From: Sedimentisphaerales bacterium
GTDB taxonomy: Bacteria > Planctomycetota > Phycisphaerae > Sedimentisphaerales > SM23-30
Direction: 5' to 3'
DNA: 64,000 bases
Assembly (NCBI GenBank): GCA_963663805.2
Contig: CAXXMR010000027.1
Location: 19,971-83,970, forward strand
Below, one piece after another: positions 3,052-25,551 of the stretch. Numbering within the stretch: position 1 is the first letter of the stretch; every line of letters begins with the position of its first letter. Under the pieces are notes generated by a model that searched no databases, was not told where the DNA came from, and saw nothing but the letters and a program-made list of their open reading frames with translations. Made by a program: the position numbers and the translations under genes.

Positions 3052-3071
3052 TAGGCTCCTCCCTAAATATG

Positions 3072-4625: not shown

Positions 4626-7473
4626 TTCAGAAAAAAACGGGCAACAACTTGTCTGGTTGCTACCCGTTCAGTTAATCACACCAACTCATATTTGCTATGA
4701 GGCTGTTTTACTTACAGAAGATAACTCGGATTTCCATTCTGTCAGGAGTTCATCGAGCCAGTCGTAAAGCATTTCTAAGGATTTCTTATACTGGTCTTCG
4801 GTAACCTCTTTCTGGAAGTCGGGGTTGGTTAGCCAATCGTTTTCTATGATTTCGATTATATCTTCGACCATTAACATAGTCTCGTAAGTGGTGTATTCCC
4901 GTTCGGGTTGATTCTTTTGCCATTTGGCCTGGCGGTTGGATTCGATTTGTTCGTCGGTCAGGATGGTTGCTTCGGGGATTGACGCGGTGCGCATCATGGC
5001 GACGGCGGTAGAGTCGGAATCATACCAACAGGCTTGCCAGAGCCAATAACCGAAAGTTTCGGCGTTGGTGGAATCTACGAAAATCATTAAATCATCGAGG
5101 TCGATATATTGGTTGTTGTCGAGGTCACAACGAGAATCCCAATTATCGTTGGGGGTGTTGGGGTCTCCGGTATAAGTGGGGTCGTAGTTGCTCCAGGCTT
5201 TCTCGAACAAGGCAAACTCCTTGAGGTTTACCACGCCATCGGCGTTATAGTCCAGAGTGCAACTTATGCCGGAATCGCAGGAATAATATTCATCGGCTCC
5301 CATATCTACATAAGTACCATTGATACGGTCTTCGTTGTCGATGTCGGTTTCGCCGGTTATTACGTTGGTATTATTGCCGGCGTCGATACAGAGCGAATTA
5401 CTGGAAAGGTGGAAGTTGCCAAGGGTTTCATCGGCATAGGCGAAGCAAGGGTCGTCAGCGATATTATAGTCATTGTTGGGAATAGTAACATTTTCTATAC
5501 AGCTATCAGTGGCAGTAATAGAAGCAGGAAGCTGGGTGCCACTGCTATTATTACCCCAGAGAATATTGTTGACTGTGTAAAGATATGGCAAACCAGCTTG
5601 ATTGGTATAAATACCCTGATTGTCATTATAGACAATGGTGTTATTGCGAATCATTGAAGATGATGAGCAGGAGCTAATAAAAATACCATATCCGGCATTA
5701 TGGTGTATCCAGCAATTTTCCAGCAAAAGCATTTCCGCATCAACATAAATACCGTACAGGTCATTATGTGCGATAATACAATGATCTACGGTCAGGGTAT
5801 TGTTGTTTCCGGTTTTGATACCATATCGACCGTTATCAGTAATACGGCAATTTCTGATAGTAACATCGCACGAAGCAGCGATACTGACAGCATCATAAGA
5901 AGCGTTAATCAAACTAAAACCATCAATAATGATATTCTGGGCATCAGCAGCGATACTTATGATATTACCAAATTGATTTGCTCCGCTTAGATAAGTGCGA
6001 TAATGAGCGGGGTGGCGTTCCGACAGCGTGGTTTCATTACCGAGAAAACCACCGTAAAGCGATACGCCGGAAGGAATGGCAAAAGTGCTGTTTAGATAGT
6101 CAGGGGTATAGGTACCGGAGGCAATCCAGATTTCATTGCCGCAACCATTGGCGGCACGACTAAGAGCGCTATGGAGAGAATTATAGGCATTGGCCCAACT
6201 GGTGCCGGTATTATATCCATCCGCAGAGTTATCAACGTAAATAACGTCGCCGCCAAAACAGCCAACCGGGGTTTCGAGGGATTCTCGACGATAGACCAGA
6301 TCGGTTTCGATTATACAGATATTAGCGATGGTGGTAAGCGGTTCGGTCGATTCATTGATGATAGTATTCAGGGTGATGGCAGAGCAGGGATCGGTATCTG
6401 CCAGTGTGCCAATATTCCATACCCAGGCGTAATATTCCTCAAGGAAGTTACTATATTGCGGTGTAGAAGAATCGTAATCGGTTTTGGTGCTGAGATAGTC
6501 AGTCAGTTTGGTGCTGTTGTGGTTATTACCGGCTGGACCATAAGTAAGGGTGTATTGCAAAACATCGTTGTAACCGGGGTAATTATTAGGGTCATTACGA
6601 TTAACATTGTCGGCCTTGTTGAGGTATATTTCCATATCCTCCGGGGCCGAGGCACAAATCATTTCGCGGGGCGTACTTGAGGAAGTTGTGTCGCCGGTTC
6701 CAAAATCACCGTTGTTATTAGTTCCCCAGGCGTAGATCATGCCGTGGCCGTCAATGGCGAGATGGTGAGTGTAGCCATCGTCAATGGCGTTGATATTTTC
6801 CAGATAGCCGGAGCGGCTGAATTGTTCACCATCCGAAACCAGTTGAGGGTTATTGCCGGACCACTGCCAGACAAAACCAAAACTGTCCAGAGCAAGGAAG
6901 TGACTGTTGCCCGCACCGATGGCAATAATATCTTCGAGATAGGTTGTCTCCATATCTCCACCGGGAACTTTTGTCGGTGCGGAACCGGGGGACCACTGGT
7001 AAACGTGTCCGTCCCCGTCGAGAGCCAGCGAATTGTTACAGGAGGCGATTTCGACAATGTTTTCCAGATAGCCCGACGGGGTTTCCATGTCGCCGTCAGT
7101 TACCCGATAGGCAAAAGGATTGCCGCTGCCCCATTCCCAGACGTTGCCGTTTTCGTCCAGTGCGAGGGAATGAGCAACTCCGGCGTCAACTTCGATGATG
7201 TCGTAACCGGTATCATAGCCAAGATATAATATGCCAAGGTTCGGGTCGTTGGCGGTTACGACTTTATGGGGGACATCCCGGTAATCAGGTGTACTGAAAG
7301 TACCAATACCCAACTGTCCACTATTGTTGTTGCCCCACGCATATACATAACTATCACTTGACGCCGCCAGCGAATGCGTGCCGCTGCGACCGGCAGAGAT
7401 ACAGGTTATGTCTTCAAGATGACCACTGACGCTGCCCTGTTGGCCATCGTGAACAAAAATAGGAGATAAAATG

Positions 7474-8999
7474 GACTCTGTAGCATCTTTACCGGCAACA
7501 TAGCATTCCAGTCCTTTCTTCATGAAGTGTTGTTGTAGTTCGTAAACGGCCTTGGGACTGCTCGTCACGCTGCATATCAATAGCCACCCGCTGGCTGATA
7601 TTGGTTTGAGTTCGCACTCGATAGACACTCTTCTGCATTTTTCGATGGCGGCGATAGCCCCGTTCAACCGCGTTGGACGTTGACGGCAGTTGTGAATCAT
7701 CAAGGAAGGTCAACGCCTTTTCGATATTGGGGGTGAACAATTTCTTAAGAGTCTGTCGCAAGGTTTTGAATCGCCCAATTCGCCGGCGTAACACAGCCAA
7801 CTTTTCCAATGCCGTTTCCGTTCGACAACGACGGTCAAAAAGACGATAAACCTGATCCATGATCGAGCGTAAATTTCTCAGGTTTGGCAAGCCTCTGGTT
7901 ATATGCAAAAACTTCTTCTTATCCTTCGAACTCAATGAATGTTGTACAAATAAATATCTGTGCTCAAACAGATCGGCAATTTTCTTTTCCTGTTTCTTCT
8001 TGCGTGATGCCGCTTTCTTCGCGGAAGAAGACGATGGACGGCCACGTTTCAGCTTGGGCAACTTTGCCTTGAGCTCTCGTCGTACTTTCGTAACAGCTTT
8101 GAGTATTTCTCTGTTGATCTCCTTGAGGACATGAAATTCGCACACCTGATGAGCAGCGTCAGGAAATATCAGCGCCAATGGCTCCGGATATAAAGGCGAG
8201 CCGTCGGTCGTAACACCCCGTAATGTCAGCGTTCTTTGTACCAGTTCGGTCCGAAACCGAAAGGAAAAGTTTGTTATATCTTCATGAGTGGGATTATGGT
8301 CAAGAACCTCGTAGATGAGCCGTTTGAAGGTGTGGTTATCCACTATGGATAAGACGCAGAATGGCCCATCATATAATTCGTCCGCTGCAATATAGCCGGA
8401 GAAATCAGCCAGAACACCATCAAGGTACTCAGTTGTAATTCGTTGCTCAGCTTTTTTTCCCCGTCGCCTCAACCCAGTTTTGAATTGTAGCCCAAGGGAC
8501 AAAAACTCTGTGGTCTCGCCACAAGTGCCATGATGCCGGGCGGTACGGCAGGCCGTCCTCCACAACCAAACGCACGGCCAGGTGAACAACCCGACGGGTA
8601 TAGTGACAGCCGGGGTCCGCAAGATCAGTGAGGTCGGCATTGAAGTATCGTTTGCATTTTGAACAACGATGCTGTGAATAGCTGACCCAAATCTCGATGG
8701 GACGGTTGGCAGCCAGGTCTCCGAGGTCATGCAGTTTTCGCCTGAAGACTTTGTCTCGATACGACGAGTGGCCGCAATGGGGGCAAGGACGCTTTTTGTA
8801 GGTGCGTGAACGCCGTTTGATTTTTGCTTTCGGTAAATCTTCAACACCAGTAATACCTTCGGTTATATCGGATACGTATTCGCCTGGCCCAGCCATAATC
8901 GTCTCTCCTGGAAAATTCCACTGGTCTGTTCTTCCAGGAGTTTTATCGGCTAATTTGCGAAAATCTCATTAAAAATGCCGGTATCTATGCTACAGTCTC
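7474..8999 (-). mobile_element. ISL3-family insertion sequence, complete copy (1526 bp)
   Basis: Imperfect terminal inverted repeats of about 23 bp: GACTCTGTAGCATCTTTACCGGC versus the reverse complement of GCCGGTATCTATGCTACAGTCTC. An 8-bp direct target duplication ATAAAATG lies at 7466-7473 and 9000-9007. Confidence 0.85.
7489..8896 (-). CDS. ISL3-type transposase in two frames that meet at an A7 run
   Basis: The N-terminal frame (8447-8896) has a zinc finger (CPHCGHSS…CSKCKRYF) and an HTH. The C-terminal frame has the DDE region (…AADELYDG…VCEFHVLKEINREILK). The frames switch at T7 on the plus strand, 8452-8458. An A6 run would give one continuous ORF. Confidence 0.75.
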
Positions 9000-9430
9000 A
9001 TAAAATGTTATTATTATAAGAACCATTGCCTATTTGACCGTAATTGTCTCCGCCCCATGCGTAAATATAACCATCTTCATCAAAAGCAAGTGAATGATAC
9101 CAGCCAGCATCTACGGCTATAATGTTTTCGAGAAAGCCTGAAGATGTATTCATTTCGCCATCATGAACAGAAACTAGGATCGTTGAACTACCGTCATTAC
9201 CATTTCCTAACTGTCCGAAACTATCGGAACCACAAGCCCAAACCGTTTTGTCTTCCATAAGGGTTAATGTGTGATACTCTCCACCTGAAATAGCGGAGGC
9301 TTTTAGGCATGTATCTTCAGCGCTGAGATTATATGAAATCCCAAATACAAAAAGTACTATTGACATTCTGAGTGTGCGCACCATCTCTGTATCTCCTTTC
9401 AAAGAGGTGAAATGTAAGTAAAAGGATTAA

Positions 9431-10078
9431 TTAATGTTTACGAAATCTGATTAAAATGTTTCCAGTGGTCAGTAACAATAAAGTTAGCGGTTCAGGAACC
9501 AATACGGCAGATGTTACAACGGCAGATATAGTCAATGATTGTTTTTCTGTGTCAACATATCTTGTGCCATCAATAGTAAGATGATTCCATGACCAATCTG
9601 TAAGATTTGGGGCACCAGTGAGTATGGCAGTGTTTTCGAGGGCAAGCATTGTATCATCATTTAATTGCCAACTAATAAAATTTATTGGCATGTCTGAGAC
9701 GGTAACATTGTTTTTGCTTACCGCATAAAATACATCTCCTCCGTATGGGCTGTCATTTGAGATTGAAACATCAAAATTGCAGTTTTGGGTATTTGTTTCA
9801 AATTTTAAATTGCCAGCTTCTAAGAAAATTCCACATGGTGCAAAGTCAAACTTGTATTCAGCAAAGTTAGTTTCCTGAATTGATGGAGTGACATTACTTT
9901 CATAGGCATACCATCCTGTTATTTCGTCGCCAACAGATGCATTTCCACCAAGGATTCCGGCCTGATCTATAATGTCTGTAATAGTAGCGGTGATAGCCAC
10001 TTTAATAATAGACGCTTGGATTGTTGGGGCTATCAAGGCCAAAGTCAAACCTACAAGAAAAACAATGCTCTTTTTCAT
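9431..10078 (-). CDS. secreted protein with a PEP-CTERM sorting signal
   Basis: N-terminal signal peptide MKKSIVFLVGLTLALIAPTIQA. C-terminal VPEPLTLLLLTTGNILIRFRKH has the PEP motif, a TM helix and a basic tail. Confidence 0.7.
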   Translation of the reverse strand: MKKSIVFLVGLTLALIAPTIQASIIKVAITATITDIIDQAGILGGNASVGDEITGWYAYESNVTPSIQETNFAEYKFDFAPCGIFLEAGNLKFETNTQNCNFDVSISNDSPYGGDVFYAVSKNNVTVSDMPINFISWQLNDDTMLALENTAILTGAPNLTDWSWNHLTIDGTRYVDTEKQSLTISAVVTSAVLVPEPLTLLLLTTGNILIRFRKH

Positions 10079-10832
10079 ATCAAATCCTCCGTAATAGTGT
10101 AATTGTTAAGTTTCCATCCTGATTATACGTGGTGTCCAGTCTATTTGACCAGGTGTTTTTTACTTTTTTGTGGCAGTGCATAAAATAAGGGCACCGCCAA
10201 ACGCCATGCTTCCCATTGGCCCGCTAGAGCCTGTGAAGAACACACGCCAGCGATGCCCAATGCCAAATGGCAAATGGGCACCTACCGGTCGCGATCCTTC
10301 ACGTTTTAAACTAGCGGTTCATGGGAAGACGCTCACTGGTAATAGTGATTCACCTATTCAAATATCAAAAACGGCGCATTTCGCCTAAATTAACGCTCCT
10401 AAAAAAATACAAACCACCTTCCCAAACTTACGACTTCCTGTACTTTATCAGATGTTTAATCCCATTGCAAGAGAAAAAACTTATTTTTTTGTTACAGCAG
10501 CCCCGACCAACTGCTGTAACTATAGGGACTTAGCGTCCTTTGTGCGCAAAGGGGGACGCCGCCTCAATTATGCCAACTCAAGGCCCGCAAAAGCCCGGTA
10601 AGGTCATAAAAGCGAACGGCGCCCTTGTATCAAAATACACGGGCACCGAGCCTTTCAGACTACCTTACCTTATCTAATTTTGCGGTTTAGAGTTGGCAGT
10701 TTGAAATCTCAGTGCAAGACGATTTCTGGTATTAAATTGTAATTATGCTCGTTTAAGCCAAATAAATCTCCTGAAAGAAAAATCGTATAGTAATGATTAT
10801 GACGATTGGGTTTTTATGATTCAAGTGTTTTT

Positions 10833-12023
10833 TTAGGAAATCCTATAACTTTTTACCCAAATTTGTACAGTGCCTTTTAGGTCAGACTGGGATTTAAGGA
10901 TGTTCAATATGCCGGAGTCGGTAAAAGAGCGGGTGGCTTTTTTGACGCTGCCCAGCAGATAAACGCCACCGGTTTTAATATATGCGGTGGTAGTGAAATC
11001 CTGCGAATTGGTGATAGGGGCCGAATTTTCGACATAACCGACCACTGACGAAATAGTGATACTAACACCCAGCTTACAGGTATCAATAGTTGATTCACGG
11101 ACGGAACAACTAAAATCCAGCCCGGTTTGAATATATTCAAAACCTGAGGTTGAGACGGTGCCATTATCTGAAACTACCTTTTTAGGGACCGGGACACGCT
11201 CACCAGAGGAAAACTGAGCATTGCCGCCATCCATCAGAACAAACATAGGCCGGGCAATCATGTTAATATTGGCTTTTTCTCGTTCTGCCTTTAGGATAGC
11301 ATTTAATATGCCGTTGGCGGCTGCGTATGAATTGCTTAGTTTGGTGCTTTCGGCCAGATTGAGGGCCAGTTCACTATCCAGCGTGAAATCAACCCCAAAA
11401 GTCTCTGAGAGTTCGTCCCGTAGGTCCACAATGTACATCTGGACCACCCAGCTATTAGATGGGGCCGAGTCTATACCGTCGAGCATTTCCGAGACACGCC
11501 GGAGAACTTCGACGGTATCACCAATTACCACCAAACCGTCATTATAAGCAACTGCCCGGCCATGCTGAGAGAGCAGCGACGTAATGGCCTGCTGGAGATC
11601 GTCGGCCCGCATACGCTTTACCACTCGAACCAGTACCCCTCTGTCCTCTGGCTGTAATGTACCCAGAAAATACAAATTGCCGGTTTTCGTGACCTGTACG
11701 CTCAACCGCCGGGCGACCACGCCGAGTATATCAGATACCGTCTGGTCCTGTACTTCGACGCTTACCGGCTTTTCGTCCAGATCACTTTCACATACCACAC
11801 TGACCCCGGATTCATTACTGAGCCAGCGCAGGAACATTTTTAAGGATATATCCTGACAGGACAGGGTTAGCAGCGTTTCTTTATTTCTGCTGTCAGATTC
11901 AGTCTCGGAGGTTTGCTGCAAGGCTTTATAATACTGCTGAAATTCTACTTTGGTTTCGAGTTTTGGTAGTTTGGAACAACCGCAAACCCAAACAGAAAAT
12001 ATAACGATCATCAATTTACGCAT
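10833..12023 (-). CDS. secretin (pIV-like) lipoprotein
   Basis: Lipobox VWVCGCS. The C-terminal secretin core reads MIARPMFVLMDGGNAQFSSGERVPVP…GFEYIQTGLDF…GGVYLLGS. Confidence 0.75.
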   Translation of the reverse strand: MRKLMIVIFSVWVCGCSKLPKLETKVEFQQYYKALQQTSETESDSRNKETLLTLSCQDISLKMFLRWLSNESGVSVVCESDLDEKPVSVEVQDQTVSDILGVVARRLSVQVTKTGNLYFLGTLQPEDRGVLVRVVKRMRADDLQQAITSLLSQHGRAVAYNDGLVVIGDTVEVLRRVSEMLDGIDSAPSNSWVVQMYIVDLRDELSETFGVDFTLDSELALNLAESTKLSNSYAAANGILNAILKAEREKANINMIARPMFVLMDGGNAQFSSGERVPVPKKVVSDNGTVSTSGFEYIQTGLDFSCSVRESTIDTCKLGVSITISSVVGYVENSAPITNSQDFTTTAYIKTGGVYLLGSVKKATRSFTDSGILNILKSQSDLKGTVQIWVKSYRIS

Positions 12024-12688
12024 AGTAATTTAACTCCTAACAATACAAAGAAGTGAGCCGGATAAAACCAGCGCCAAAGCCAATTGGGAATCTGTAATTT
12101 AAAATTCTTGGGGCAAAGATAGATAACCGGCAAGGCCAGTATAGCGAAAATCTGGACCGGATTATTTGTAATAGAGGAATACAGCAAAGTAAGGGCAATA
12201 TAAAATATTATCCCTTTTACTTTGTGAGTCTCTAAAAGTCTGAATACAAACAACAGTAACAGGCCGTATATGCTGTATTCAACCAAAGCGGTACATAATC
12301 CCAGAAATACCGCAATAGCTTTATGGCCGCTCTGCCAAAGCTGATAAACCAGAATGAAGATTGCAAAGGTAAATACAATATTGAATTTGCACGAGACAAA
12401 CAAAGCGAAACCATATTGAGCCAGTGCCGCTATAACTGCCAGACGCAGGAAGTACCGGAATTTATTGTCTGTCCAGTCTATCCCGGTTGCCATCAGGTAG
12501 GCATAAATGGGAAAAGCTATCCTGCCGACCATTCGCAAGGCTAATACTTGCGGAAAGAATATCATACCGATATGGTCTAAAACCATCGTAATAATGGCAA
12601 TGCACTTGAGATATTCCCGCCGATTGTCAATTAGTTTTCCATTCGTAGTATAGTTCCATCGGACAATATTATCATTCGTTTGCGCCAT
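12011..12688 (-). CDS. traX: TraX-family membrane acyltransferase
   Basis: Polytopic membrane protein with TraX signature blocks: LKCIAIITMVLDHIG, GRIAFPIYAY, NIVFTFAI and the C-terminal FYPAHFFVLLG. These compare with F-plasmid TraX LKLLALVLMVADH, GRGAFPLFA and FYACHLAVLG. Confidence 0.75.
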   Translation of the reverse strand: MAQTNDNIVRWNYTTNGKLIDNRREYLKCIAIITMVLDHIGMIFFPQVLALRMVGRIAFPIYAYLMATGIDWTDNKFRYFLRLAVIAALAQYGFALFVSCKFNIVFTFAIFILVYQLWQSGHKAIAVFLGLCTALVEYSIYGLLLLFVFRLLETHKVKGIIFYIALTLLYSSITNNPVQIFAILALPVIYLCPKNFKLQIPNWLWRWFYPAHFFVLLGVKLLCVN

Positions 12689-13881
12689 ATTATTTCCTCA
12701 ACTTTCTTGCCCTGATATATGCCGGAATCTATTATTTCCCCTATTTGCAAATCCAAACCATTTTTCAGTAAAACACTGTCCCTTGTCATAAGGGCTATGG
12801 CAGATTCGGAAATAAGTTTTTCCTGCAAGGTTTGTTTTTCCTGATTGGCCTTTTCTAGTTCCTGCTGAATTTGCAAAAGTTCATTGGCGGGAATAACCGG
12901 CTGGGCAGTATTAACAGCAGGAGCCGTTTTAACGTTTTCAACTTTCTTAATCGCTGTTTGTTTCTTGGCAAGATAGCTGAGCTTTTCCAGAAAAGTTCTG
13001 AATAATATTTTGCTGCCGCCGAACAACACTATCCAGCAGAACAAAGCGACAATTAACGCCCTTGAAGCCAGAGCGAGAGGGTGAGTCTTGATAAACCACC
13101 AGAAAACACCTATACGGCCATGCTTTTGAAATTCATGTTGGGCCGCCTTGCCAGCCTTACCGCCGGTATGCGGGGCGACAAAGGAGTCATAGAACTGGAA
13201 ATAATACGGGTCGAGCGTGAAAGTCTCCCGGTGTGATACTTTCCACTTGCCGTCAATGGAGCGTTTTTCAATCTGATGTATCTTTTTTTCATACACTCCG
13301 GTTAATGCTGCCTGTAATTCGTACCAGTGCGCCATCTGTATTTTGAAGAACGGGTCACGGTTGGTTTCGCCATTGACAAGGCTGATTAAAACTGAGGCTT
13401 CCCATTTAATTTCATCGGCCAGCTTATTAGGTGATTGGGTCAAAAATTCAACCGTTGCCCCTCTATGCCGGATTTCACCCAACCACTTGCCCCATTTTTG
13501 CCGTTGATGTTTGGGAGTGGATACGCCACAAAAATTATGTATTTCATCTATGGCGATATGAGCGTTATTTATATCAATATCCTGAAAATAACTCCACGGT
13601 CCCTCCGCTAAATCTGTTTGCCGACGATCATAGGTCAGCATCCATTTATCAAGCTCGGCTTTCGGGATAATATGTATTCTTTCCAGAATCTTTTCTTTTG
13701 GGATATTATGTTTTTTGCTGACCACTTCGGCCATCTTGTCAGCAAAGGCCGGATAGTTAGTGTAAATATGGCCGGTTTCTTTCGGCAGAAATTCATCGAC
13801 CATAAACCTTGAACATCGGCGATAGGTCTTGCCGGAACCCGCCGGGCCGGTTGTCAGATATACTGTACTTCTTTTTGCCAT
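12631..13881 (-). CDS. Zot / pI-like morphogenesis ATPase
   Basis: N-terminal Walker A LTTGPAGSGKT. A single central TM helix (LIVALFCWIVLFGGSKILF) is followed by a coiled C-terminal domain. This is the typical inovirus pI topology. Confidence 0.8.
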   Translation of the reverse strand: MAKRSTVYLTTGPAGSGKTYRRCSRFMVDEFLPKETGHIYTNYPAFADKMAEVVSKKHNIPKEKILERIHIIPKAELDKWMLTYDRRQTDLAEGPWSYFQDIDINNAHIAIDEIHNFCGVSTPKHQRQKWGKWLGEIRHRGATVEFLTQSPNKLADEIKWEASVLISLVNGETNRDPFFKIQMAHWYELQAALTGVYEKKIHQIEKRSIDGKWKVSHRETFTLDPYYFQFYDSFVAPHTGGKAGKAAQHEFQKHGRIGVFWWFIKTHPLALASRALIVALFCWIVLFGGSKILFRTFLEKLSYLAKKQTAIKKVENVKTAPAVNTAQPVIPANELLQIQQELEKANQEKQTLQEKLISESAIALMTRDSVLLKNGLDLQIGEIIDSGIYQGKKVEEIIWRKRMIILSDGTILRMEN

Positions 13882-13883
13882 TT

Positions 13884-14204
13884 TTACCCCACAGTTGGAA
13901 TTAATTTCAATACGAATTTCACGGTAACAAATACCGCAACAAAAGTGTAATACACTGCTAATAGGGTAACACCGTAATCAAGAGGAACCCATGAATTGGC
14001 AACCTCAATCCAGACTTTCATTGGCTCAAGATTGGCCTGCCAGTCAGCCGGGACCATTTCCAGCAGGAAACCCAGCCCGGTATCAACCAGAGTCTTTATG
14101 GAGTCACTAAGCCAGTTCCAGAAGGCTACTAGAGCATTTATAATGGCCGATTCCCACCAGCTAGGCTGTTCCTCGCTGGCAAGTATATAGAGAAAATTGA
14201 ACAT
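13884..14204 (-). CDS. small membrane protein, pVI-like by position
   Basis: 106 aa with a C-terminal hydrophobic helix (LLAVYYTFVAVFVTVKFVL). It lies between the adsorption-protein genes and the pI gene. Confidence 0.45.
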   Translation of the reverse strand: MFNFLYILASEEQPSWWESAIINALVAFWNWLSDSIKTLVDTGLGFLLEMVPADWQANLEPMKVWIEVANSWVPLDYGVTLLAVYYTFVAVFVTVKFVLKLIPTVG

Positions 14205-14216
14205 GATTATGCCTTT

Positions 14217-14639
14217 CTAATATTGCCGTAATACCAGCCAGATATTTCTGATGAGCCAATAGGTCATGAGCGCAATAAACAACATGCGTATCCATTTACG
14301 GAGCTGGTCAACTGCCGCCCCCATTGTTGTTGATGTATCAGGCACGAGATTAATTTTGTATTCCTGAACACCAGCACCGGGAAAGGGTATACGTAGGGTA
14401 ACGGTATAATCACGCTGGTTATCAGGCCGGAGGGATTCCCAGTTGCCCCGGATTTTATCGAAGCGCCCTAACATATCATCATAGTCTTGATCGCCGAAAT
14501 TAAAAGATGAGGGATTAGTGGTATAATTCCCCGGTTCGTACTGGTCGGGGTCTTGATAAGTATCATCATTATCGGGAGCGTCATTATTGGTATCACCTGT
14601 ACCATCGCCGCTATAACCGCCCGTTGAATAAACCATCAT
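14217..14639 (-). CDS. acidic protein with a C-terminal membrane anchor (possible C-terminal module of the adsorption protein)
   Basis: The N-terminus is rich in D, N and G. The C-terminal TM is IRMLFIALMTYWLIRNIWLVL. It overlaps the upstream ORF by 29 nt in the +1 frame. Confidence 0.45.
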   Translation of the reverse strand: MMVYSTGGYSGDGTGDTNNDAPDNDDTYQDPDQYEPGNYTTNPSSFNFGDQDYDDMLGRFDKIRGNWESLRPDNQRDYTVTLRIPFPGAGVQEYKINLVPDTSTTMGAAVDQLRKWIRMLFIALMTYWLIRNIWLVLRQY

Positions 14640-15714
14640 GGTAATCGTCCGGGTCAGTGGGGTCAGTTGCCGGCGGTGCTACCGGGTTGGGATTATCAAC
14701 CGTTGGCGTAGGTGTCGCCGGGTTGGTTTCGCTGTAGTTGCTTTCCCCGTCGCCGTCATAGTCCAGATTGTTCCAGTCCGGGTCATATAATTCTGAGGGG
14801 TAATCATCGGAATTTAGCCAGTTAGAGCCGCTATCCCATTCCAGACCATCGGTATAGCCATCGCCATCCGAATCATTCAGACGCCAGTTACCAACGCCGT
14901 TATCACTAACGGGATTAAACATATTTATTTCAGAATCGAAATCACCCGTTCCCGGTGCTTTTGATGTTGCATCATACGGGTCGAAACCGTGTGTTTCTTC
15001 CCAGCCATCGGAAAAACCATCACCATCAGAATCAATATTCCGTTTATTCTCCCAGTTATCAGCCCATGCTGTGGGGTCTTCCTGCCAGAGTTTATAATCG
15101 AAAGGGTCGTCGTTAGTGCCAGTGGCAGAAGTCCAGTTTGTACCTTCAAAATTTTCACCAAATATCTTTTTGCCAAGTTCATTCATATACTGGTCATGTA
15201 ATGGGCAGTCTTTATCAATCTGGTCCGGTATGCCGTCCAAATCTTCATCTATTAATGGATTGTTAATTTCATTGGCGTAATCATCCAGTAAATCCAAATC
15301 ATCCGGCGGGGAATAGGGGCCGCCATCAACAAACTGGCTGTAATCCGGGGCAGAACTGCAAGCACTGTAATAGCTTTCTGCATTACCGCCCCAGCTACCA
15401 TCTACATACCAGCGACCACCACCAGAACTATCCCACTGAAAACATTTGTAGCCTGAATATGAATGCCATGTACCGGAATAATAGTACATTGAACCTGTCC
15501 CGCAATACCTTCTGGTGCCATCTGATGAAGTATAAACCGTCGGCATTAGAAACGTATAGCCAGGTTGACTGCCGGTAAACATGCCTATCCCTTCCCCCGC
15601 GCAAATATCAACCGGGGAAGGTGTACTGTTATCAACGGCAAAGGTCGGCAAAGCCGTCAATAGTGATATTACCAGAGTTTTCTTGAGTCTTTTGCTAACA
15701 GGATTAAACGCCAT
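14611..15714 (-). CDS. secreted adsorption-protein candidate (pIII-like) with thrombospondin-type-3-like calcium-binding repeats
   Basis: Signal peptide MAFNPVSKRLKKTLVISLLTALPTFA. Repeated motifs DSDGDGFSDGWE, DSDGDGYTDGLE, DYDGDGESNYSE and DEDLDGIPDQID. It is the largest virion-type ORF and sits in the gIII position. Confidence 0.55.
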   Translation of the reverse strand: MAFNPVSKRLKKTLVISLLTALPTFAVDNSTPSPVDICAGEGIGMFTGSQPGYTFLMPTVYTSSDGTRRYCGTGSMYYYSGTWHSYSGYKCFQWDSSGGGRWYVDGSWGGNAESYYSACSSAPDYSQFVDGGPYSPPDDLDLLDDYANEINNPLIDEDLDGIPDQIDKDCPLHDQYMNELGKKIFGENFEGTNWTSATGTNDDPFDYKLWQEDPTAWADNWENKRNIDSDGDGFSDGWEETHGFDPYDATSKAPGTGDFDSEINMFNPVSDNGVGNWRLNDSDGDGYTDGLEWDSGSNWLNSDDYPSELYDPDWNNLDYDGDGESNYSETNPATPTPTVDNPNPVAPPATDPTDPDDYHDGLFNGRL

Positions 15715-15890
15715 GATACAGCACCCCAGATAATAGTTGCGGTTATACACAATACCTTTAACATGAATTTGGATTCATAAATGTCGTTCTGTATCGTCTG
15801 CCATTGATTAGGGTCAATAACCACCGTAGAGGCAAGGCAGCTTGAGGACAGAAAGAGCAATATCAATATGAATTTCATTTTATTCCCCAT
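15669..15890 (-). CDS. small membrane protein (minor coat candidate)
   Basis: Signal-like N-terminus MKFILILLFLSSSCLA plus a second hydrophobic helix. It lies within the coat gene block. Confidence 0.4.
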   Translation of the reverse strand: MGNKMKFILILLFLSSSCLASTVVIDPNQWQTIQNDIYESKFMLKVLCITATIIWGAVSWRLILLAKDSRKLW

Positions 15891-15899
15891 AAAAAAAGG

Positions 15900-16043
15900 C
15901 TAAGTGGAGCGTTTGCCCCACTTTAGCCCGACTCGGATAATGGTAAATGCAACAGAACCGCCGATAAGAATAAGCAGCCACGGCCCGATTAAACTTACTA
16001 CCGCAACCAGAAAACCACCTATATCATTAAGCTCAAATTCCAT
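15900..16043 (-). CDS. 47-aa Pf3-type coat-like protein (below the ORF-track size cut-off)
   Basis: My own translation is MEFELNDIGGFLVAVVSLIGPWLLILIGGSVAFTIIRVGLKWGKRST. It has an acidic N-terminus, one TM helix and a basic tail. Confidence 0.45.
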   Translation of the reverse strand: MEFELNDIGGFLVAVVSLIGPWLLILIGGSVAFTIIRVGLKWGKRST

Positions 16044-16071
16044 TGCAAATACCTATTATCCTTTAACAAGA

Positions 16072-16299
16072 TTAACCAATCTTGTTGCCCCATCGCAGGG
16101 CACGTCTTACCACCAGAAAAGCGAAGTAACCACCCACAGCAACCGCAGCAACAGCGCCGAGGGCAGTAATACCGGCGGTGATATAACCGCCTACATCAAT
16201 TCCGGTATCGGGGATGGTGACTCCACTGGCAAAAACACGGGAAGCACCGGCACCGACCAAGACAGCGCCCCCAAGGGCTAAATTCCTGACCTTTTTCAT
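16072..16299 (-). CDS. major coat protein candidate (g8p-like)
   Basis: MKKVRNLALGGAVLVGAGASRVFA | SGVTIPDTGIDVGGYITAGITALGAVAAVAVGGYFAFLVVRRALRWGNKIG. It has a signal peptide with an AxA-type cleavage site, an acidic mature N-terminus, a Gly/Ala-rich TM and a basic C-terminus. Confidence 0.7.
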   Translation of the reverse strand: MKKVRNLALGGAVLVGAGASRVFASGVTIPDTGIDVGGYITAGITALGAVAAVAVGGYFAFLVVRRALRWGNKIG

Positions 16300-16503
16300 A
16301 ACAAAATCCTTTCGCAACACAAAACACAATAAAATATAAAACAATTCAGTTTGGCCAAAACTGTTACACGCAAAAATTAGATATTCTCACCATGCCAGAA
16401 GTTGAAAATCTTTAATCCATTACAGGCAACGACTACAAAATGAAGGGCGGCATGAAATATAAAACCACATGACCAGCCGTAAATGACATAATTCCAGGGG
16501 CTG

Positions 16504-17466
16504 CTAAATTCCATATTGTTCACCGCTTTCGTCAAAATAACTCTCATAGTTACTTACCGGGCAGGTTCGGTAGCGTTCCTCATCGAGTGTTTCTTCGAGA
16601 ATTGCCCGCACCCAGTCAGGCATAAAATCAGGTTTTCTCTTATTTATCAAGTGAAGTGCGGCGGCGTCCGCCGCCGCCAACCCTGCAAAGCAGCACAAAT
16701 GGTCACGGTCAACATCAAGATGCATCCAGCCTTTCTCCGAACCAATGACATTAACATTATTTTCCATGCAGGCTTTTAATAAAAAACCGATATGAACATT
16801 AACGGTGAAAAAACTTGGGTCAGTAACACCTTCCCGGCATAAGGTTTTATTTCGATATTCCTCCAGACGAACAGCAATAGGGATATAACAGCCAGATTTT
16901 CCCCAAGGGTCGGGGATTTTCTTGTCGTACTTTTCCTTTTCGTTTTCTTCCTCCCAGAAGCCGGGACTGACGGCAACAATTTTTACCGTCTTGGGTTTTT
17001 CCGCCAGAATCCACGCCGGGACTTTTCCATCTTTGGCTACGTATTTAGTTACGTAACCGGCAATAGAGTCTTTCCAGCGGTTGACCCAGACGAATCCATG
17101 CCCCCAGAGTGCCTGTAGATCACTCTGAGGGATGAACCCGGAATAATCAATGATAAGATGAAAATGAACCCAGCCGCCTTCCTGAAATTCTAATTTCCGC
17201 ATCCATTTACCGGTTAGCGATTCTCCTAGATACCGGGATAGACGCCTGATGAATAACGGGACGTGCTGTTGTTCTTTCATCTGGTAATAAAGTTCCCTTG
17301 GCGATTCGTAATCGTCATGTCTGTAAGTTAAAGTAATGAACAACCCACGACGGCCACCCATACGGTTTTTAATTCTTTCCGCGAGGTTAAACGAAAGAAA
17401 CGGGACGCTTAGAGGGTCAAACCAACTTTTCAGACTGGGAACTTTTACCGCTATCATGATTATCAA
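16504..17466 (-). CDS. rolling-circle replication initiator (HUH superfamily, two-tyrosine type)
   Basis: HUH motif WVHFHLIIDY. Catalytic motif GYVTKYVAKDGK (Y-x-x-K-Y, as in phiX174 gpA-type Reps). Confidence 0.75.
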   Translation of the reverse strand: MIIMIAVKVPSLKSWFDPLSVPFLSFNLAERIKNRMGGRRGLFITLTYRHDDYESPRELYYQMKEQQHVPLFIRRLSRYLGESLTGKWMRKLEFQEGGWVHFHLIIDYSGFIPQSDLQALWGHGFVWVNRWKDSIAGYVTKYVAKDGKVPAWILAEKPKTVKIVAVSPGFWEEENEKEKYDKKIPDPWGKSGCYIPIAVRLEEYRNKTLCREGVTDPSFFTVNVHIGFLLKACMENNVNVIGSEKGWMHLDVDRDHLCCFAGLAAADAAALHLINKRKPDFMPDWVRAILEETLDEERYRTCPVSNYESYFDESGEQYGI

Positions 17467-17477
17467 TTCCTTGGAAA

Positions 17478-17744
17478 TTATTCTTTTTCGTCCACGGGTT
17501 TAATGCCCGCAAGGTCAAACTGGGGGACATTGTTAAAGAAACTAAAAGTACCAAAACAGCGGACGTTTTGACCTATAACAACTTCCTGATAAAGACTTAT
17601 ATCTTCTGTCCGAAGATTGAAATTCTTACCGAGAGTTGCTACGGAAATGATATATTGACGCCATTTTGAGTCGGCCTTCTTGGGCATAATGACTCTGGTG
17701 TCTTGAACGATACCGCAAATTTCAAATCGGTCCAACAATTTCAT
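17478..17744 (-). CDS. small ssDNA-binding protein candidate (gV-like by size and position)
   Basis: 88 aa, next to the Rep gene. No recognisable motif; the call rests on position only. Confidence 0.35.
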   Translation of the reverse strand: MKLLDRFEICGIVQDTRVIMPKKADSKWRQYIISVATLGKNFNLRTEDISLYQEVVIGQNVRCFGTFSFFNNVPQFDLAGIKPVDEKE

Positions 17745-17794
17745 AAAACTGGCTCCTAAAAAAGTAGTAAAAAAATAAAAACCTTTTTTTGCTC

Positions 17795-17916
17795 AGGCTC
17801 CCCTACAAATCCGGCAGCAGCGCTGCTCACCGTCCCTTTCTTTTTCGCCCTCCAACCGCTTGCGCGAGGGCGAAAAAGCGGAGACGGCAGCAGCTTAAAT
17901 TTTCGTTGGGGAGCCT
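17795..17916 (-). promoter_or_regulatory. long rod-like hairpin in the prophage intergenic region (candidate packaging signal or origin)
   Basis: Outer stem AGGCTCCCC (17795-17803) pairs with GGGGAGCCT (17908-17916). Middle stem CTGCT-CA-CCGTC pairs with GACGG-C-AGCAG. Inner perfect 12-bp stem TTTTTCGCCCTC (17841-17852) pairs with GAGGGCGAAAAA (17866-17877). A 12-nt palindrome AGCAGCGCTGCT lies at 17816-17827. Confidence 0.55.
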
Positions 17917-18044
17917 CTATTTACTTTTCAATGTGAGGCTTTCTAAATTACTAACGGCCTCTATAATTGGCCGATAGTTGCATTTTTTTTGAAAGTTTTT
18001 CGAGGAAATGTGGAATTTGAGATTGGAAACGCAGAAAAAAAGTT

Positions 18045-18365
18045 TTATTTTTCTTCTGAAAGTTGTATCGACCGTTGCATTTTGGCGCGGGATTTAAGAT
18101 ATTGCGAAACGCTTTCCCAGCGGTATAAAGTGACCTTGTTGACACCCACTTTGCGGGATAACTCATCAACAGTAATATCGGGACAACTCAGAATATACGC
18201 CATCGCCAGAGTTTTTTTGTCAACATGAACCAGACGATTATCTGAAAAATATTGAACCTGCTTTTTGCCTTGGGAATCGCCGCACAAGCTATCTATTTCA
18301 CCATCAACAATTTTCAGCGAGTCAATAAGGGATTGTTTCAATTGAATTAAATCAGGTAATTTCAT
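18045..18365 (-). CDS. HTH DNA-binding protein (prophage regulator candidate)
   Basis: C-terminal HTH ITVDELSRKVGVNKVTLYRWESV. It is a paralogue of 18844-19158. Confidence 0.55.
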   Translation of the reverse strand: MKLPDLIQLKQSLIDSLKIVDGEIDSLCGDSQGKKQVQYFSDNRLVHVDKKTLAMAYILSCPDITVDELSRKVGVNKVTLYRWESVSQYLKSRAKMQRSIQLSEEK

Positions 18366-18429
18366 GATATGCCAAGGAGTACAAAAAATGGCTCTCCTAG
18401 CGGAACTTACAAGGCTAGGAGAGCAAAGA

Positions 18430-18651
18430 TTATTTATGCAAATTTTTCATTCGGTTTTTCTCAAATAGGCACACCTCCTTTCGTAAATATCTGATAGTAC
18501 TGCCTTTCTTTTTGCCTAAACACAGAACCACAAACCCTTCCTCGCAAGCAATGGACATCACGGTATTTCGGGAAACTTGCCAGCGGTGGGCTAATTCTTT
18601 AGGTGAGACGTAAACAGAATCGTTTGAAACATTTGTTGTGCTGTTTTTCAT
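18430..18651 (-). CDS. AlpA/excisionase-type HTH protein
   Basis: VSPKELAHRWQVSRNTVMSIACEEGF…IRYLRKEVCLFE resembles Xis/AlpA (HTH_17-type) proteins. Confidence 0.5.
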   Translation of the reverse strand: MKNSTTNVSNDSVYVSPKELAHRWQVSRNTVMSIACEEGFVVLCLGKKKGSTIRYLRKEVCLFEKNRMKNLHK

Positions 18652-18716
18652 GCTAAAATCCTTCGGTAATTCTATTAACGCTTCCAGTAGTGGCCGACCG
18701 TCGCATGAAAAACGTT

Positions 18717-18747
18717 AAAAAAAAGCCTGAAAATGGATTTTCAGGCT
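18717..18747 (-). terminator. rho-independent terminator after 18844-19158
   Basis: 10-bp stem AGCCTGAAAA / TTTTCAGGCT with a 4-nt loop. On the minus strand it is followed by a U8 run (plus-strand A-run 18717-18724). Confidence 0.65.
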
Positions 18748-18843
18748 AAAAACGAGGGAAAATATTTTTATTTTGTCTAAAAACGTCGCATTGTTCGTCG
18801 CATGGATAGCGAAAATAACCACTTGAGGCCGATGGGGAATGAT

Positions 18844-19158
18844 TTAGCGGCTATATCTGTCACGCTTGTAATCTTTTCTTGCCCTCAAAATCCTTCCAAC
18901 TTCCGACCAGCGGTATAACGTCGATTTGTGTACCCCGACCATTTTTGCTAATTCTTCGGAAGGTATCCCCGGTAGTCTTAAAAGTATCGCCATTGCGACA
19001 TCCTGCGGGTCTAAATCTATGGTTTTCCCACCGGTTCGATAGGTAATACCGTTACTCTCAACGCCTCCCGATATGCCCTCCGACCCGTTATTCCCAACCA
19101 GCTCTAGAAGTTCATTGAGAAGATTTATTGCCAATTGTCTTTGTTTGGCATTCATCAA
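18844..19158 (-). CDS. HTH DNA-binding protein (prophage regulator candidate)
   Basis: HTH IPSEELAKMVGVHKSTLYRWSEV. It is a paralogue of 18045-18365. Confidence 0.55.
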   Translation of the reverse strand: MMNAKQRQLAINLLNELLELVGNNGSEGISGGVESNGITYRTGGKTIDLDPQDVAMAILLRLPGIPSEELAKMVGVHKSTLYRWSEVGRILRARKDYKRDRYSR

Positions 19159-19653
19159 TCTATCTCAATACTGGAAGATTATTTTATTTCATGGCTTATA
19201 TCATTGAATATAAAAGCGCGCGGATACCTCGGTCTAAATTTTAAAAGCAAAGTCAGGGTTATGGAAAATAGACTTAAGCCGATAAAGGCGGATTATCCCG
19301 ATGGTTTATATTGGGGTATCATTTGACAGGTTCCTTCCATGCTGCTGCAATTCTGTGTGTAGCCGCTTTCAATAAAGGCGGGATGTCCAAAATATACAAT
19401 ATAGATTTTCGTGACGCAAATTATCGCCCCTTAAATATATGTTTTTATTCAGGTGGACATTACGCAATCGGCAGGCAGGAAAAAAACACGACCTCCGGGG
19501 TTGAAAAAGACTGTCAGGCAAAAAAGAGGCCCAAAGTGGGAACACTTTTGGGTACACTCAACTTGACAACATGGGACATATATTATATAATGACATTCGG
19601 TAAACTATTGTGTTTACTGTAAGTTATGAATTTGCAATGGGGTCATTAACTCC

Positions 19654-19695
19654 CTCATAACCCGGAGGTCGTTGGTTCGAATCCAGCCCCCGCTA
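19654..19695 (+). tRNA. 3-prime fragment of a CAU-anticodon tRNA (Met/Ile2 type), from the anticodon loop to the discriminator; not a complete gene; att-site candidate
   Basis: The parts in order are anticodon loop CTCATAA, stem 3-prime strand CCCGG, variable loop AGGTC, T arm GTTGG-TTCGAAT-CCAGC, acceptor strand CCCCGCT and discriminator A. The spacing is exactly canonical. Upstream there is no D arm, no partner for the anticodon stem and no AGCGGGG acceptor strand. Confidence 0.65.
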
Positions 19696-19710
19696 ATCCT
19701 TGTTATAAAG

Positions 19711-19739
19711 GGACTTGCAGCAATGTAAGTCCTTTTTTT
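19711..19739 (+). terminator. rho-independent terminator after the tRNA fragment
   Basis: GGACTT-GCAGCAATGT-AAGTCC followed by T7. Confidence 0.6.
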
Positions 19740-21865: not shown

Positions 21866-22630
21866 TTAATCTTCTTTTTTTGGATTTTCGGGGTCGGATT
21901 GCTTTTTCTTGTTTTTCAGACGATAGCTTCTGCCGGTGATTTGGACTATTTCGGAATGATGCAGGAAGCGGTCCAGGATGGCGGTGGCTGAGGGCACATC
22001 GCCCAGAAGTTTGCCCCAATCTTCCAGCGGGCGGTTACTGGTCATGATTGTCGAACGGACTTCATATCTTTGCATGATCACTTCAAAAAGATACTCGCCG
22101 CTGTTTCGGGGCAATTGTTTCATGCCCATGTCATCGATTATCAGCAGGTCGGGTTTCAGATACTTCGCCAAAACTTTGTCTATCTGTCCCAAAGCTTCAT
22201 CCTGCATAAAATCGCGTACCAGATCGAAGATCGAACGATAGCGAACCGTATGGCCGTTCTTAATTGCCTGATAACCCAAAGCCTGGGCCAAATGACTTTT
22301 GCCGGTGCCGGGTGGTCCCAGGAATAATATATCGTTGCCCTGACGGATAAATTTGCAACAGGCAAAATCGTAGATCTGTTTTCGTTTAATGGTATTGTTG
22401 AACTGCCAGTCGAAATCTTCCAGGGTTTTTAATTCTCGAAACCCGGCCTGCTTAATTCTTCTCTGCATGAGTCTTTCATCTCTAATGAGAAGTTCATCCT
22501 GCAAAATCAGTTCTAAAAACTGATCGTATGAAAGCTGATTACCTACCGCTTCCTGGATACGAATTTCCAGCGAAGATGCCAGGCCGGACAATCGTAATTT
22601 CCTTAACGATGTTAACAATGATTCCTGCAT
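21866..22630 (-). CDS. istB: IS21 helper ATPase IstB
   Basis: Walker A LGPPGTGKSHLA and Walker B LLIIDDMG. Typical size of about 254 aa when started at MQESLLTSLRKL. Confidence 0.85.
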   Translation of the reverse strand: MQESLLTSLRKLRLSGLASSLEIRIQEAVGNQLSYDQFLELILQDELLIRDERLMQRRIKQAGFRELKTLEDFDWQFNNTIKRKQIYDFACCKFIRQGNDILFLGPPGTGKSHLAQALGYQAIKNGHTVRYRSIFDLVRDFMQDEALGQIDKVLAKYLKPDLLIIDDMGMKQLPRNSGEYLFEVIMQRYEVRSTIMTSNRPLEDWGKLLGDVPSATAILDRFLHHSEIVQITGRSYRLKNKKKQSDPENPKKED

Positions 22631-22755
22631 GTTTGTGCTCCTTGATTTGAAGGTTAGTAAAACAAATATTCCGTTTTCCCTTCTCGCCCAAAGGTGGAGG
22701 TTAAATGGCGGGGTTTGGGGCCGGCCCCAAGTAAAAATAGTTGCCGCAGGCATCC

Positions 22756-24366: not shown

Positions 24367-24484
24367 TTTGTGCCTCTGATAACCTGAGTTTTTACCCAGA
24401 TTAACAAAGACAAACATTTCAACTATTCAATTTTGGCCGGTTTTCAAGCGCCCCTCATTGGCCGGTTTTGAGCGCCCCTTGACA

Positions 24485-25536: not shown

Positions 25537-25551
25537 AGATGCTACAGAGTC
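24485..25551 (+). mobile_element. second ISL3-family copy, 5-prime truncated by IS21
   Basis: The translated ORFs (24523-25536; 7489-8847 tail) are identical to copy 1 and the stretches compared at both ends match the reverse complement of 7474-8540. It starts abruptly at the IS21 end and ends with the same terminal repeat …GATGCTACAGAGTC. Confidence 0.85.

Follow-up and report, generated by a model that had tools for sequence, protein, structure and literature searches.

A probable temperate filamentous phage of the inovirus type and its initiator tRNA attachment site in a Sedimentisphaerales bacterium

The stretch of DNA analysed here, referred to below as the window, comprises 64 kb of the genome of a Sedimentisphaerales bacterium and carries, at positions 10833-19158, 14 co-directional genes packed into 8.3 kb of the minus strand. 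We consider it probable, jointly with the reading of its integration as one unit of a tandem array at the initiator tRNA gene (tRNA-fMet), that this block supplies the replication, virion and export functions to a temperate filamentous phage of the inovirus type (Tubulavirales-like) with a Sedimentisphaerales host. Less ordinary here are the lipoprotein secretin on a phage of Planctomycetes, the attachment (att) site in an initiator tRNA with its tandem arrays, and the possible large cargo that goes with the module. Loci compared with the window are denoted by L-numbers; three of them (L001, L006 and L007) lie in OY763926.1, and L002, L068 and L075 belong to one genome of 5.9 Mb.

The module was delimited by its open reading frames (ORFs) and by profile searches in Pfam, PHROG and NCBIfam. 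Its gene order matches the canonical inovirus layout, and the three hallmark proteins, the secretin pIV, the morphogenesis ATPase pI/Zot and the HUH replication protein Rep, all have significant profile matches. The features by which inovirus-like elements (Tubulavirales sensu Roux et al. 2019) are recognised, namely a pI ATPase, a coat protein, a HUH Rep and the layout, are all present. The identity given by the original prediction, that of an inovirus-like prophage with its own secretin in a host of the Planctomycetes-Verrucomicrobia-Chlamydiae (PVC) superphylum, stands: the closest relatives are in metagenome-assembled genomes (MAGs) of Sedimentisphaerales (Phycisphaerae, Planctomycetota), and every feature that had been listed was found in its place on the minus strand. 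The proposed extent of about 8.3 kb was too short, since the element reaches at least to the att core ending at 19696; by analogy with one relative, it probably included in addition an integrase and cargo on the secretin side.

Genes of the module

The regulatory module (18045-19158) encodes three small helix-turn-helix (HTH) proteins, as had been predicted: HTH104 (18844-19158), whose gene is followed by a terminator at 18747-18724, HTH73 (18430-18651), an excisionase-type protein of the HTH_17 family similar to Xis and AlpA, and HTH106 (18045-18365). Homologues of HTH73 co-occur with the integrase family of the window in many unrelated islands. The regulators are only 37-41% identical to those of L002 in pairwise tblastn. 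Next to them lies an intergenic region (17745-18044), a candidate origin or packaging signal with a long hairpin at 17795-17917. The expectation that it is highly structured was borne out by folding: the 300 nt folded as DNA give -54 kcal/mol against a shuffle mean of -38 (z = -4.5), none of 100 shuffles being as stable, and the region is kept at the nucleotide level in L002 and L005.

The first of the two replication genes encodes a protein of 88 amino acids (aa) at the gV position (17478-17744), for which a role in binding single-stranded DNA (ssDNA) is suggested by position only. It is 56-72% identical in relatives and has no match in Pfam, PHROG or PDB profile searches, and its single-sequence AlphaFold 2 model was unusable, with a predicted local distance difference test score of 42. 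The second is the rolling-circle Rep of 320 aa (16504-17466), which matches PF23343 (REP_ORF2-G2P, E = 2e-16) and also replication-initiation families of PHROG, and contains the HFH motif and YVTKY, that is, the Y-x-x-K-Y active site noted originally. Weak matches of this protein to Microviridae Reps were found by tblastn.

The coat genes begin with a small protein of 45 aa (16377-16514), kept in relatives. The major coat preprotein has 75 aa, about 51 in the mature form (16072-16299), and is recognised by its sequence features: a signal peptide ending RVFA/SG, an acidic N-terminus, a Gly/Ala-rich hydrophobic core and the basic tail RRALRWGNKIG. The signal peptide, transmembrane helix and basic tail ascribed to it earlier are all seen, and the same layout is shared by relatives, with identities of 79-81% in L002, L005 and L007 and 68% in L003. 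It is followed by a coat-like membrane protein of 47 aa (15900-16043) with a terminator-like hairpin at the 3' end of its gene (15923-15902), and by a protein of 69-73 aa with a signal peptide and a transmembrane helix (15669-15890), a minor coat candidate that is likewise kept in relatives. The 45-, 47- and 69-73-aa products account for the further tiny membrane proteins that had been predicted.

The large secreted adsorption protein is present, but its gene g3 (14217-15750) is split in two ORFs by a frameshift. The N-terminal part (379 aa, 14611-15750) is secreted and contains TSP3 repeats with a match to PF18884; the C-terminal part (140 aa, 14217-14639) carries the membrane anchor. All relatives have a single ORF of 468-498 aa, so the completeness that the prophage had appeared to have is not demonstrable for this copy. 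The g3 proteins of L002, L003, L005 and L007 align across both frames, to nucleotide 14632 and then from nucleotide 14630, and the split is caused by a single extra T (plus-strand AAA 14630-14632) in GGTTTATT, where the relatives have GG(A/T)TATTC. The extra T may reflect a real mutation that inactivates g3 or else a mistake of the assembly, and the window copy is probably defective or helper-dependent. That the prophage is instead fully functional, the split being an error of sequencing or assembly, is a possibility of some weight that we do not favour. The other genes are all intact and have lengths like those of the relatives, the frameshift amounts to one base within a 3-nt run, and in another assembly of a relative (L004, compared with L003) g3 is likewise split. 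Against full function speaks the decay of the neighbourhood, with an integrase remnant, three insertion sequence (IS) families and an IS-interrupted gene, and a run of 3 nt is short for a homopolymer error.

The assembly and export genes close the block. A membrane protein of 106 aa (13884-14204), 75-87% identical in relatives and with no family match in Pfam or PHROG, is pVI-like by position and hydrophobicity only. The pI/Zot ATPase (416 aa, 12631-13881) matches PF05707 (E = 2e-11, above the gathering score) and phrog_197 (E = 3e-14). It has an N-terminal P-loop with Walker A (GPAGSGKT) and Walker B (IAIDEIH) motifs and one transmembrane helix near residue 275, in line with the single-helix protein proposed before. 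The pIV-type outer-membrane secretin (396 aa, 10833-12023) matches PF00263 (E = 3e-11), and its best PHROG match is phage pIV itself (phrog_1012, 'protein IV of M13', E = 6e-28, residues 52-372), while scores with the NCBIfam GspD and PilQ equivalogs are far below their cut-offs. Its lipobox, VCG/C in the window and SG/C in the relatives, is found in all relatives aligned, so the lipoprotein secretin described at the end of the block is indeed there.

Between pI and pIV, and overlapping both at its ends, lies a gene for a polytopic membrane acyltransferase similar to TraX and TrbP (225 aa, 12011-12688). It matches PF05857 (E = 3e-28, above the gathering score) over profile positions 2-216 of 217. 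The NCBIfam matches to TrbP (5e-14) and TraX_Ftype (7e-11) are all below the cut-offs (42-52 bits against 149-206), and by these scores the protein is a member of the family and not an orthologue of F TraX or RP4 TrbP. The gene is present in L001, L002, L003, L005, L007 and L074, with ratios of nonsynonymous to synonymous substitution rates (dN/dS) of 0.08-0.11; among the loci of one comparison it is restricted to the close clade, and outside that set it also occurs in L074, an 8.5-kb relative with 40% pI identity. F TraX acetylates the N-terminus of pilin (its NCBIfam name is 'pilin acetylase'), and by analogy the phage enzyme probably acylates a virion protein. Purifying selection acts on all genes of the module including this one, with dN/dS of 0.03-0.17 (0.04-0.08 for pIV), ratios that are rough as dS is saturated.

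By homology to Ff-type phages, Rep would nick the structured intergenic origin and drive rolling-circle synthesis of ssDNA, which the gV-position protein would coat. The 75-aa coat and the small membrane proteins would wait in the inner membrane, one virion protein would be acylated by the TraX-like enzyme in the way of F TraX on pilin, and the filament would be extruded without lysis by the pI ATPase and the lipoprotein secretin pIV that the phage itself encodes. A filamentous virion, a circular ssDNA genome and non-lytic release are predicted for this element.

Relatives and mobility

Homologues of pI number 104 at E <= 1e-3. The closest (66-83% identity) are in two complete Sedimentisphaerales MAG chromosomes, OY763926.1 and OY759675.1, in the 5.9-Mb genome, and on metagenome contigs of 5-8 kb. 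Among these close relatives the genes from the gV position to pIV, including TraX, are collinear with 65-75% nucleotide identity, and the flanking genes differ every time. Two copies of the module, one of them 5'-deleted, lie 18.6 kb apart in OY763926.1. Distant pI relatives (29-42%) occur mainly in MAGs of Phycisphaerae, Planctomycetaceae, Pirellulales, Victivallales and Lentisphaerae, with one labelled Lachnospiraceae and one unclassified; in all of them pIV follows pI directly, except on contigs that end at the pI gene. One distant genome of 8,331 bp (L070/L071) is circular, having been assembled independently as two circular permutations with terminal overlaps of 141 nt and 55 nt. The varied contexts, the double occurrence in one genome and the circular relative mark the module as mobile DNA and not as a fixed secretion locus. 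The alternative raised with the original prediction, a block fixed in the chromosome, is likewise not borne out: the block turns up in several genomic contexts, one genome has two copies of it, and it also occurs on short contigs that stand alone.

In a further relative, L074 (Logan SRR25649121, 8,475 bp), the genes run Rep...g3-pVI-pI-TraX-pIV, and the next ones on this strand are an Xis-like gene and an integrase. This integrase is of another family (Phage_int_SAM_5, 29% identical to the integrase int#1 of the window), and the contig ends in a partial tRNA; evidently the integration module has been swapped within the clade of this phage.

In tblastn against 50,697 GenBank phage records no similarity to pI or pIV was detected, and IMG/VR has pI homologues of only 30-39% identity, on contigs of 6-10 kb. 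Apart from a few metagenome contigs, members of the close clade (66-100% pI identity) were seen in recent long-read MAGs of Sedimentisphaerales only. Neither the GenBank phage records nor the IMG/VR contigs that were searched contain a close representative of the lineage. A pI fragment 87% identical to that of the window was also observed on a contig of 1,284 bp binned as 'Candidatus Zixiibacteriota' (L010, JAGLON010000104.1), probably a mis-binned fragment of phage or Sedimentisphaerales DNA.

Attachment site and ownership of the integrase

Beyond the regulators, all features of the putative integration site are on the plus strand. The P arm (19159-19653), defined by alignment with L002 and comparison of arms, contains a tandem pair of 8-mers, GTGGGAACACTTTTGGGTACAC, at 19536-19557, which are candidate arm sites of an integrase. 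A promoter scan detected a perfect sigma-70 consensus, TTGACA-17-TATAAT, at 19563-19591. It faces the half-tRNA, terminator and integrase that follow, has counterparts in L002 (TATACT) and L007 (TATATT), and might drive a half-tRNA transcript or, after circularisation, read-through expression of the integrase. The att core (19654-19696), an attR or a junction between two elements, reads CTCATAACCCGGAGGTCGTTGGTTCGAATCCAGCCCCCGCTAA. It corresponds to the 3' half of an initiator tRNA-fMet, beginning in the anticodon loop and ending with the discriminator base, and is followed by the tRNA terminator hairpin (19710-19739). Positions 19654-19695 are identical (42/42) to the 3' half of the intact tRNA-fMet on the metagenome contig L063. 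ARAGORN and Rfam found no tRNA or known RNA anywhere in the window, and the half-tRNA was spotted by eye and then compared exactly. A tRNA-like fold 5' of the half-tRNA was considered and rejected: its partial acceptor pairing in the window is not kept in L002 or L007. The tyrosine integrase int#1 (P0148, 19817-20998) matches PF00589 (E = 9e-13) and phrog_1 (E = 4e-41).

Members of the int#1 family (1612 proteins at E <= 1e-60) are mostly on islands without inovirus genes. At 15 of 34 metagenome loci an integrase homologue is located 100-240 bp downstream of an intact tRNA-Met(CAT). The attR half-sites of L038, L039 and L054, which start exactly at CTCATAACCC, close the island, and canonical attL/attR pairs are seen in these three loci and in L075. 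Two half-sites each in L035 and L061 point to tandem arrays. By these alignments the family is a canonical one, its core running from the anticodon loop to the 3' end of the tRNA. One of the units between two tRNA-fMet half-sites, of 6.9 kb (L035, 3128-10009), was observed to encode an integrase, an Xis-like HTH protein and a distant Rep homologue (30%), and neither pI nor pIV; this unit may represent an integrative element with rolling-circle replication that uses the tRNA-fMet att system too.

In the window, L002 and L007 the order of regulators, half-tRNA and integrase resembles an intact attP. An element integrated through attP cannot keep its attP intact, so this junction needs an explanation, and one is offered by the 5.9-Mb genome (L075 and L068). 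There, host genes are followed by an intact tRNA-fMet, integrase P0112, a 192-aa gene and an Rhs gene, and then by a trio of methyltransferase (MTase), HATPase and 399-aa genes, the inovirus block from pIV to the regulators, a half-tRNA and integrase P0107; beyond P0107 are a PEP-CTERM/beta-helix cassette and a second trio, 78% identical to the first. The P arm beside the inovirus regulators contains an exact copy (21/21) of a 21-nt tandem repeat, TGTGCACCATTTTGTGCACCA, that is situated between the tRNA and P0112, whereas P0107 is preceded by a different repeat, CTATACCCTAAACTATACCCT. In the island L039 both arms bear one and the same tandem arm motif. Taken together, the match of TGTGCACCATTTTGTGCACCA to P0112 and the pattern of L039 indicate that the inovirus in the 5.9-Mb genome is the attR-proximal part of a unit of about 24 kb with its integrase at the tRNA, and, as the match is to P0112 and not to P0107, that the integrase past the half-tRNA belongs there to the next unit.

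Lysogeny would accordingly be expected to use a tyrosine integrase of this family, with the 3' half of initiator tRNA-fMet as the att core. An integrated unit would consist of tRNA (or half-tRNA), integrase, hairpin, variable cargo, the block from pIV to the regulators and a half-tRNA, and such units would stack in tandem. In the window, 19654-19696 would then be the right-hand att site of the inovirus unit, int#1 would belong to the neighbouring unit, and the integrase of the inovirus unit itself would be the remnant at 4414-4525 or lie outside the window. By analogy with the 5.9-Mb genome, the owner of int#1 is most likely the following element of the array and not the inovirus. On balance we favour the view that the window is a decayed tandem array, in which the inovirus unit lost the 5' end of its integrase and its left att site by deletion.

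Among the other explanations of the junction, the one that fares better is a self-contained prophage, some 10.2 kb long (10833 to ~21040) and with int#1 as part of it, which has an intact attP in its regulators, half-tRNA and integrase and entered by another route or site. We regard this as unlikely. The window, L002 and L007 indeed all keep the three components next to each other, nucleotide homology of the latter two loci is unbroken over the junction and ends just past the integrase and at the secretin stop, and the 8-mers of the window P arm match the arm repeats of int#1 when inverted. The difficulty is that integration through attP leaves no intact attP, and no alternative flanking repeats were found: at the block ends of the window, L002, L005 and L007 matches are at chance level only. 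Moreover, the P arm of L002 matches exactly the distal P0112, which is at the intact tRNA, and not the adjacent P0107, and int#1 is 63% identical to the L002 integrase compared with 72-87% for the structural, assembly and Rep proteins (tblastn; 37-41% for the HTH regulators).

Still less probable, in our judgement, is an inovirus without an integrase of its own that borrows those of resident tRNA-fMet islands in a satellite-like manner. Consistent with borrowing, the circular relatives L070/L071 and the contig L003 carry no integrase, and the integrase family is huge and mainly on non-inovirus islands. A borrower is predicted to have an intact tRNA or half-tRNA directly beside its secretin end; the window, L001, L002, L005 and L007 have neither there, none of the genomes examined has a half-tRNA separating cargo from secretin, and a sensitive search for a decayed copy next to the secretin was negative. 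The exact arm-repeat match to P0112 in L075 is also that of a cognate pair.

Two other candidates were tried and rejected. A 92-bp repeat in L002 was considered as an att pair, but from a third copy it became clear that the repeat flanks a PEP-CTERM/beta-helix cassette that has been inserted. The repeat, of about 90 bp and about 87% identity, has three copies in the 5.9-Mb genome (L002 2311-2402 and 18324-18411; L068 16100-16186), two of which bracket the cassette of 4.8 kb, and this suggests a second-level insertion site for cassettes inside integrative units. An inversion mediated by ISL3 was considered as the cause of the odd junction, and the halves of the interrupted RCC1 gene proved to be collinear across the IS.

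Several observations weigh against the conclusion that the block is a phage module integrated as one unit of a tandem array. The window has a single copy of the core in 64 kb, so the unit is not bounded by two, as the one in the 5.9-Mb genome is; its left att site and cognate integrase were not found there, and its extent follows from analogy with one relative. The P-arm 8-mers GTGGGAACACTTTTGGGTACAC resemble the arm repeats of int#1 inverted (17/20), so that a cognate relation of the two is possible; L005 is without integrase and half-tRNA; and P0118, an integrase with a P0112-like N-terminus located on the same contig beyond the window, lowers the certainty. A free circular genome is seen only in the distant relative L070/L071 (pI 35% identical), while the closest stand-alone contig, L003 (8.3 kb), has no terminal overlap and no integrase, and its completeness is not demonstrable. 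On the side of the genes, gV and pVI are candidates assigned by position, with size or hydrophobicity, only, and the frameshift of g3, lying in a 3-base run, may be an assembly error. A non-viral chromosomal locus for secretion or pili with secretin and ATPase, or a domesticated remnant fixed in the lineage, is by far the least credible alternative: secretion systems also have secretin and Zot-like ATPase domains (pIV is weakly similar to GspD and PilQ), yet Rep, the coat preprotein and the ori-like hairpin are arranged in inovirus order, phage pIV is the top secretin match, the contexts vary, one genome has two copies and one relative is a free circular genome.

Neighbourhood, cargo and known systems

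On the secretin side, a gap of 750 bp (10079-10832) separates the secretin stop from a PEP-CTERM gene; it contains several GC-rich hairpins and no convincing ORF, and neither Rfam nor comparison with the other loci gave any match to it. The PEP-CTERM gene (9431-10078) and an RCC1/beta-helix surface gene form the candidate cargo of the inovirus unit (4695-10078, minus strand). The RCC1/beta-helix gene is interrupted at about 7474-8975 by an ISL3 element whose own transposase frame is split. Cassettes of PEP-CTERM and RCC1/beta-helix genes likewise follow this type of integrase in L068 and L069, and the L069 integrase is at an intact tRNA-fMet that adjoins housekeeping genes. The 5'-truncated integrase remnant (4414-4525, plus strand), the third copy of the family in the window and a candidate for the decayed left end of the inovirus unit, is followed by a conserved hairpin (4559-4618, plus strand). 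A hairpin of the same kind (452-509) follows a partial integrase of the family that runs off the window start (1-427) and is 86% identical to the L002 integrase at its C-terminus. The hairpins have the core CCGGGCCACGGTCC...GCTTTCGCTGTCCGG, their outer stem co-varies between copies, and they are also found after the integrase in L002, L007, L001 and L069; each could be a terminator or a recombination-related site. Between the first integrase with its hairpin and the remnant lies the anti-phage defence pair IetAS (568-4049, minus strand), an AAA ATPase (IetA: PADLOC 3e-70, NCBIfam IteA 2e-58) and an S8 peptidase (IetS, 9e-31), which looks like the cargo of another unit in the tRNA-fMet array.

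Past int#1 there are a truncated gene and then three ISs: IS21 (istA/istB, 21866-24417), which cuts a partial ISL3 (24485-25551; 1,067 bp, 100% identical, inverted), and, beside the latter, an IS66 transposase (25580-27058). The two ISL3 copies, inverted relative to each other, flank the whole prophage region. In the host part, the stretches 33819-34747 and 34943-35874 belong to adjacent genes for 490 and 391 aa with no Pfam match and are 65% identical in nucleotides, being tandem paralogues.

In the array of OY763926.1 (L001/L006/L007), the 5'-deleted inovirus copy is fused to the 3' end of an integrase. The DNA between its two inovirus copies encodes a Bil-type ubiquitin-like system (BubE/ThiF/E2/Multi_ubiq), a sigma factor with an M78 peptidase, and DarT-Macro (DarTG). 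Judged by the formyltransferase-HAD flank, which in L069 lies ahead of the intact tRNA-fMet, this array seems to be inverted.

Candidate cargo next to the module comprises, in various genomes, the MTase/HATPase trio, an Rhs toxin, type I restriction-modification, Bil, DarTG and PEP-CTERM/beta-helix cassettes. We put forward as a speculation, and with considerable doubt, that the inovirus module is the replication and egress engine of larger tRNA-fMet elements (about 15-24 kb) that ferry cargo between Phycisphaerae cells in filamentous virions whose coat is acylated by TraX like conjugative pilin, giving rise to stacked 'defence island' arrays at the initiator tRNA. If so, cassettes for defence and surface proteins would have filamentous phages as their carriers in Planctomycetota.

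A delimited and comparatively analysed lineage of temperate filamentous phages is of importance for Planctomycetota, a phylum with an unusual envelope and almost no characterised phages. The lipoprotein secretin, the TraX-like enzyme and the tRNA-fMet att system offer starting points for experimental work and for annotating prophages of PVC genomes. The analysis also contains a warning: an integrase beside a prophage module may be that of another element, and its owner can be identified from arm-type repeats.

With the Ff phages (M13/fd/f1) the element shares the order of replication genes, coats, g3, g6, g1 and g4, as well as an own pIV secretin, a pI ATPase with one transmembrane helix, a coat preprotein with a signal peptide, a structured intergenic region and a terminator-like hairpin after the coat genes. 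It differs from them in the gV-position gene preceding Rep, TraX between pI and pIV, the lipoprotein nature of the secretin, temperate life with a tRNA att site, a Planctomycete host, and the lack of tblastn-detectable similarity in pI and pIV. Pseudomonas inoviruses of the Pf4/Pf1 type are temperate and have a tyrosine integrase, a tRNA gene as attB and an excisionase-type small HTH protein; their target is tRNA-Gly, and they are without a secretin of their own. In contrast, the element described here has initiator tRNA-fMet as the target, a phage-encoded secretin, apparent large cargo and tandem arrays.

The Xanthomonas inoviruses Xf109, Xf409 and Cf1c (Xylivirus) likewise have a TraX/TrbP-like gene directly after pI/Zot (annotated 'conjugal transfer protein TrbP', NC_043028), but lack the secretin gene. 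In tblastn, TraX matches Xf109 and Xf409 weakly (34% identity over about 40% of its length, E = 3e-4), and the adjacency of Zot and TrbP in these phages means that the pI-TraX pairing recurs in cultivated inoviruses. The Xanthomonas phages integrate through the host XerCD at dif (PMC4076744).

A catalogue published in 2019 (PMC6813254) lists inovirus-like sequences for nearly every bacterial phylum, and the detection logic of that catalogue and IMG/VR, a pI-like gene together with inovirus genome features, is also the one applied here. The original remark that filamentous phages of such hosts are essentially uncharacterised experimentally is largely true for Planctomycetota, but the induction of filamentous phages from cultured Lentisphaerae, another PVC lineage, was reported in 2024 (PMC11361711). 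Those of strains WC36 and zth2 are chronic filamentous phages of PVC hosts too, assigned to Inoviridae, and differ in being reported as extrachromosomal.

Finally, canonical tRNA-integrating islands share with the units described here an integrase just downstream of an intact tRNA, a core that extends from the anticodon loop as far as the 3' end, arm-type repeats in tandem on either arm, and tandem arrays with defence cargo; the difference is that here one arm of the island is a full filamentous-phage module. In its workings the element would resemble those inoviruses of the Ff type that encode a secretin themselves, with the addition of integrase/tRNA lysogeny of the Pf type and the pI-TraX pairing of the Xanthomonas phages.

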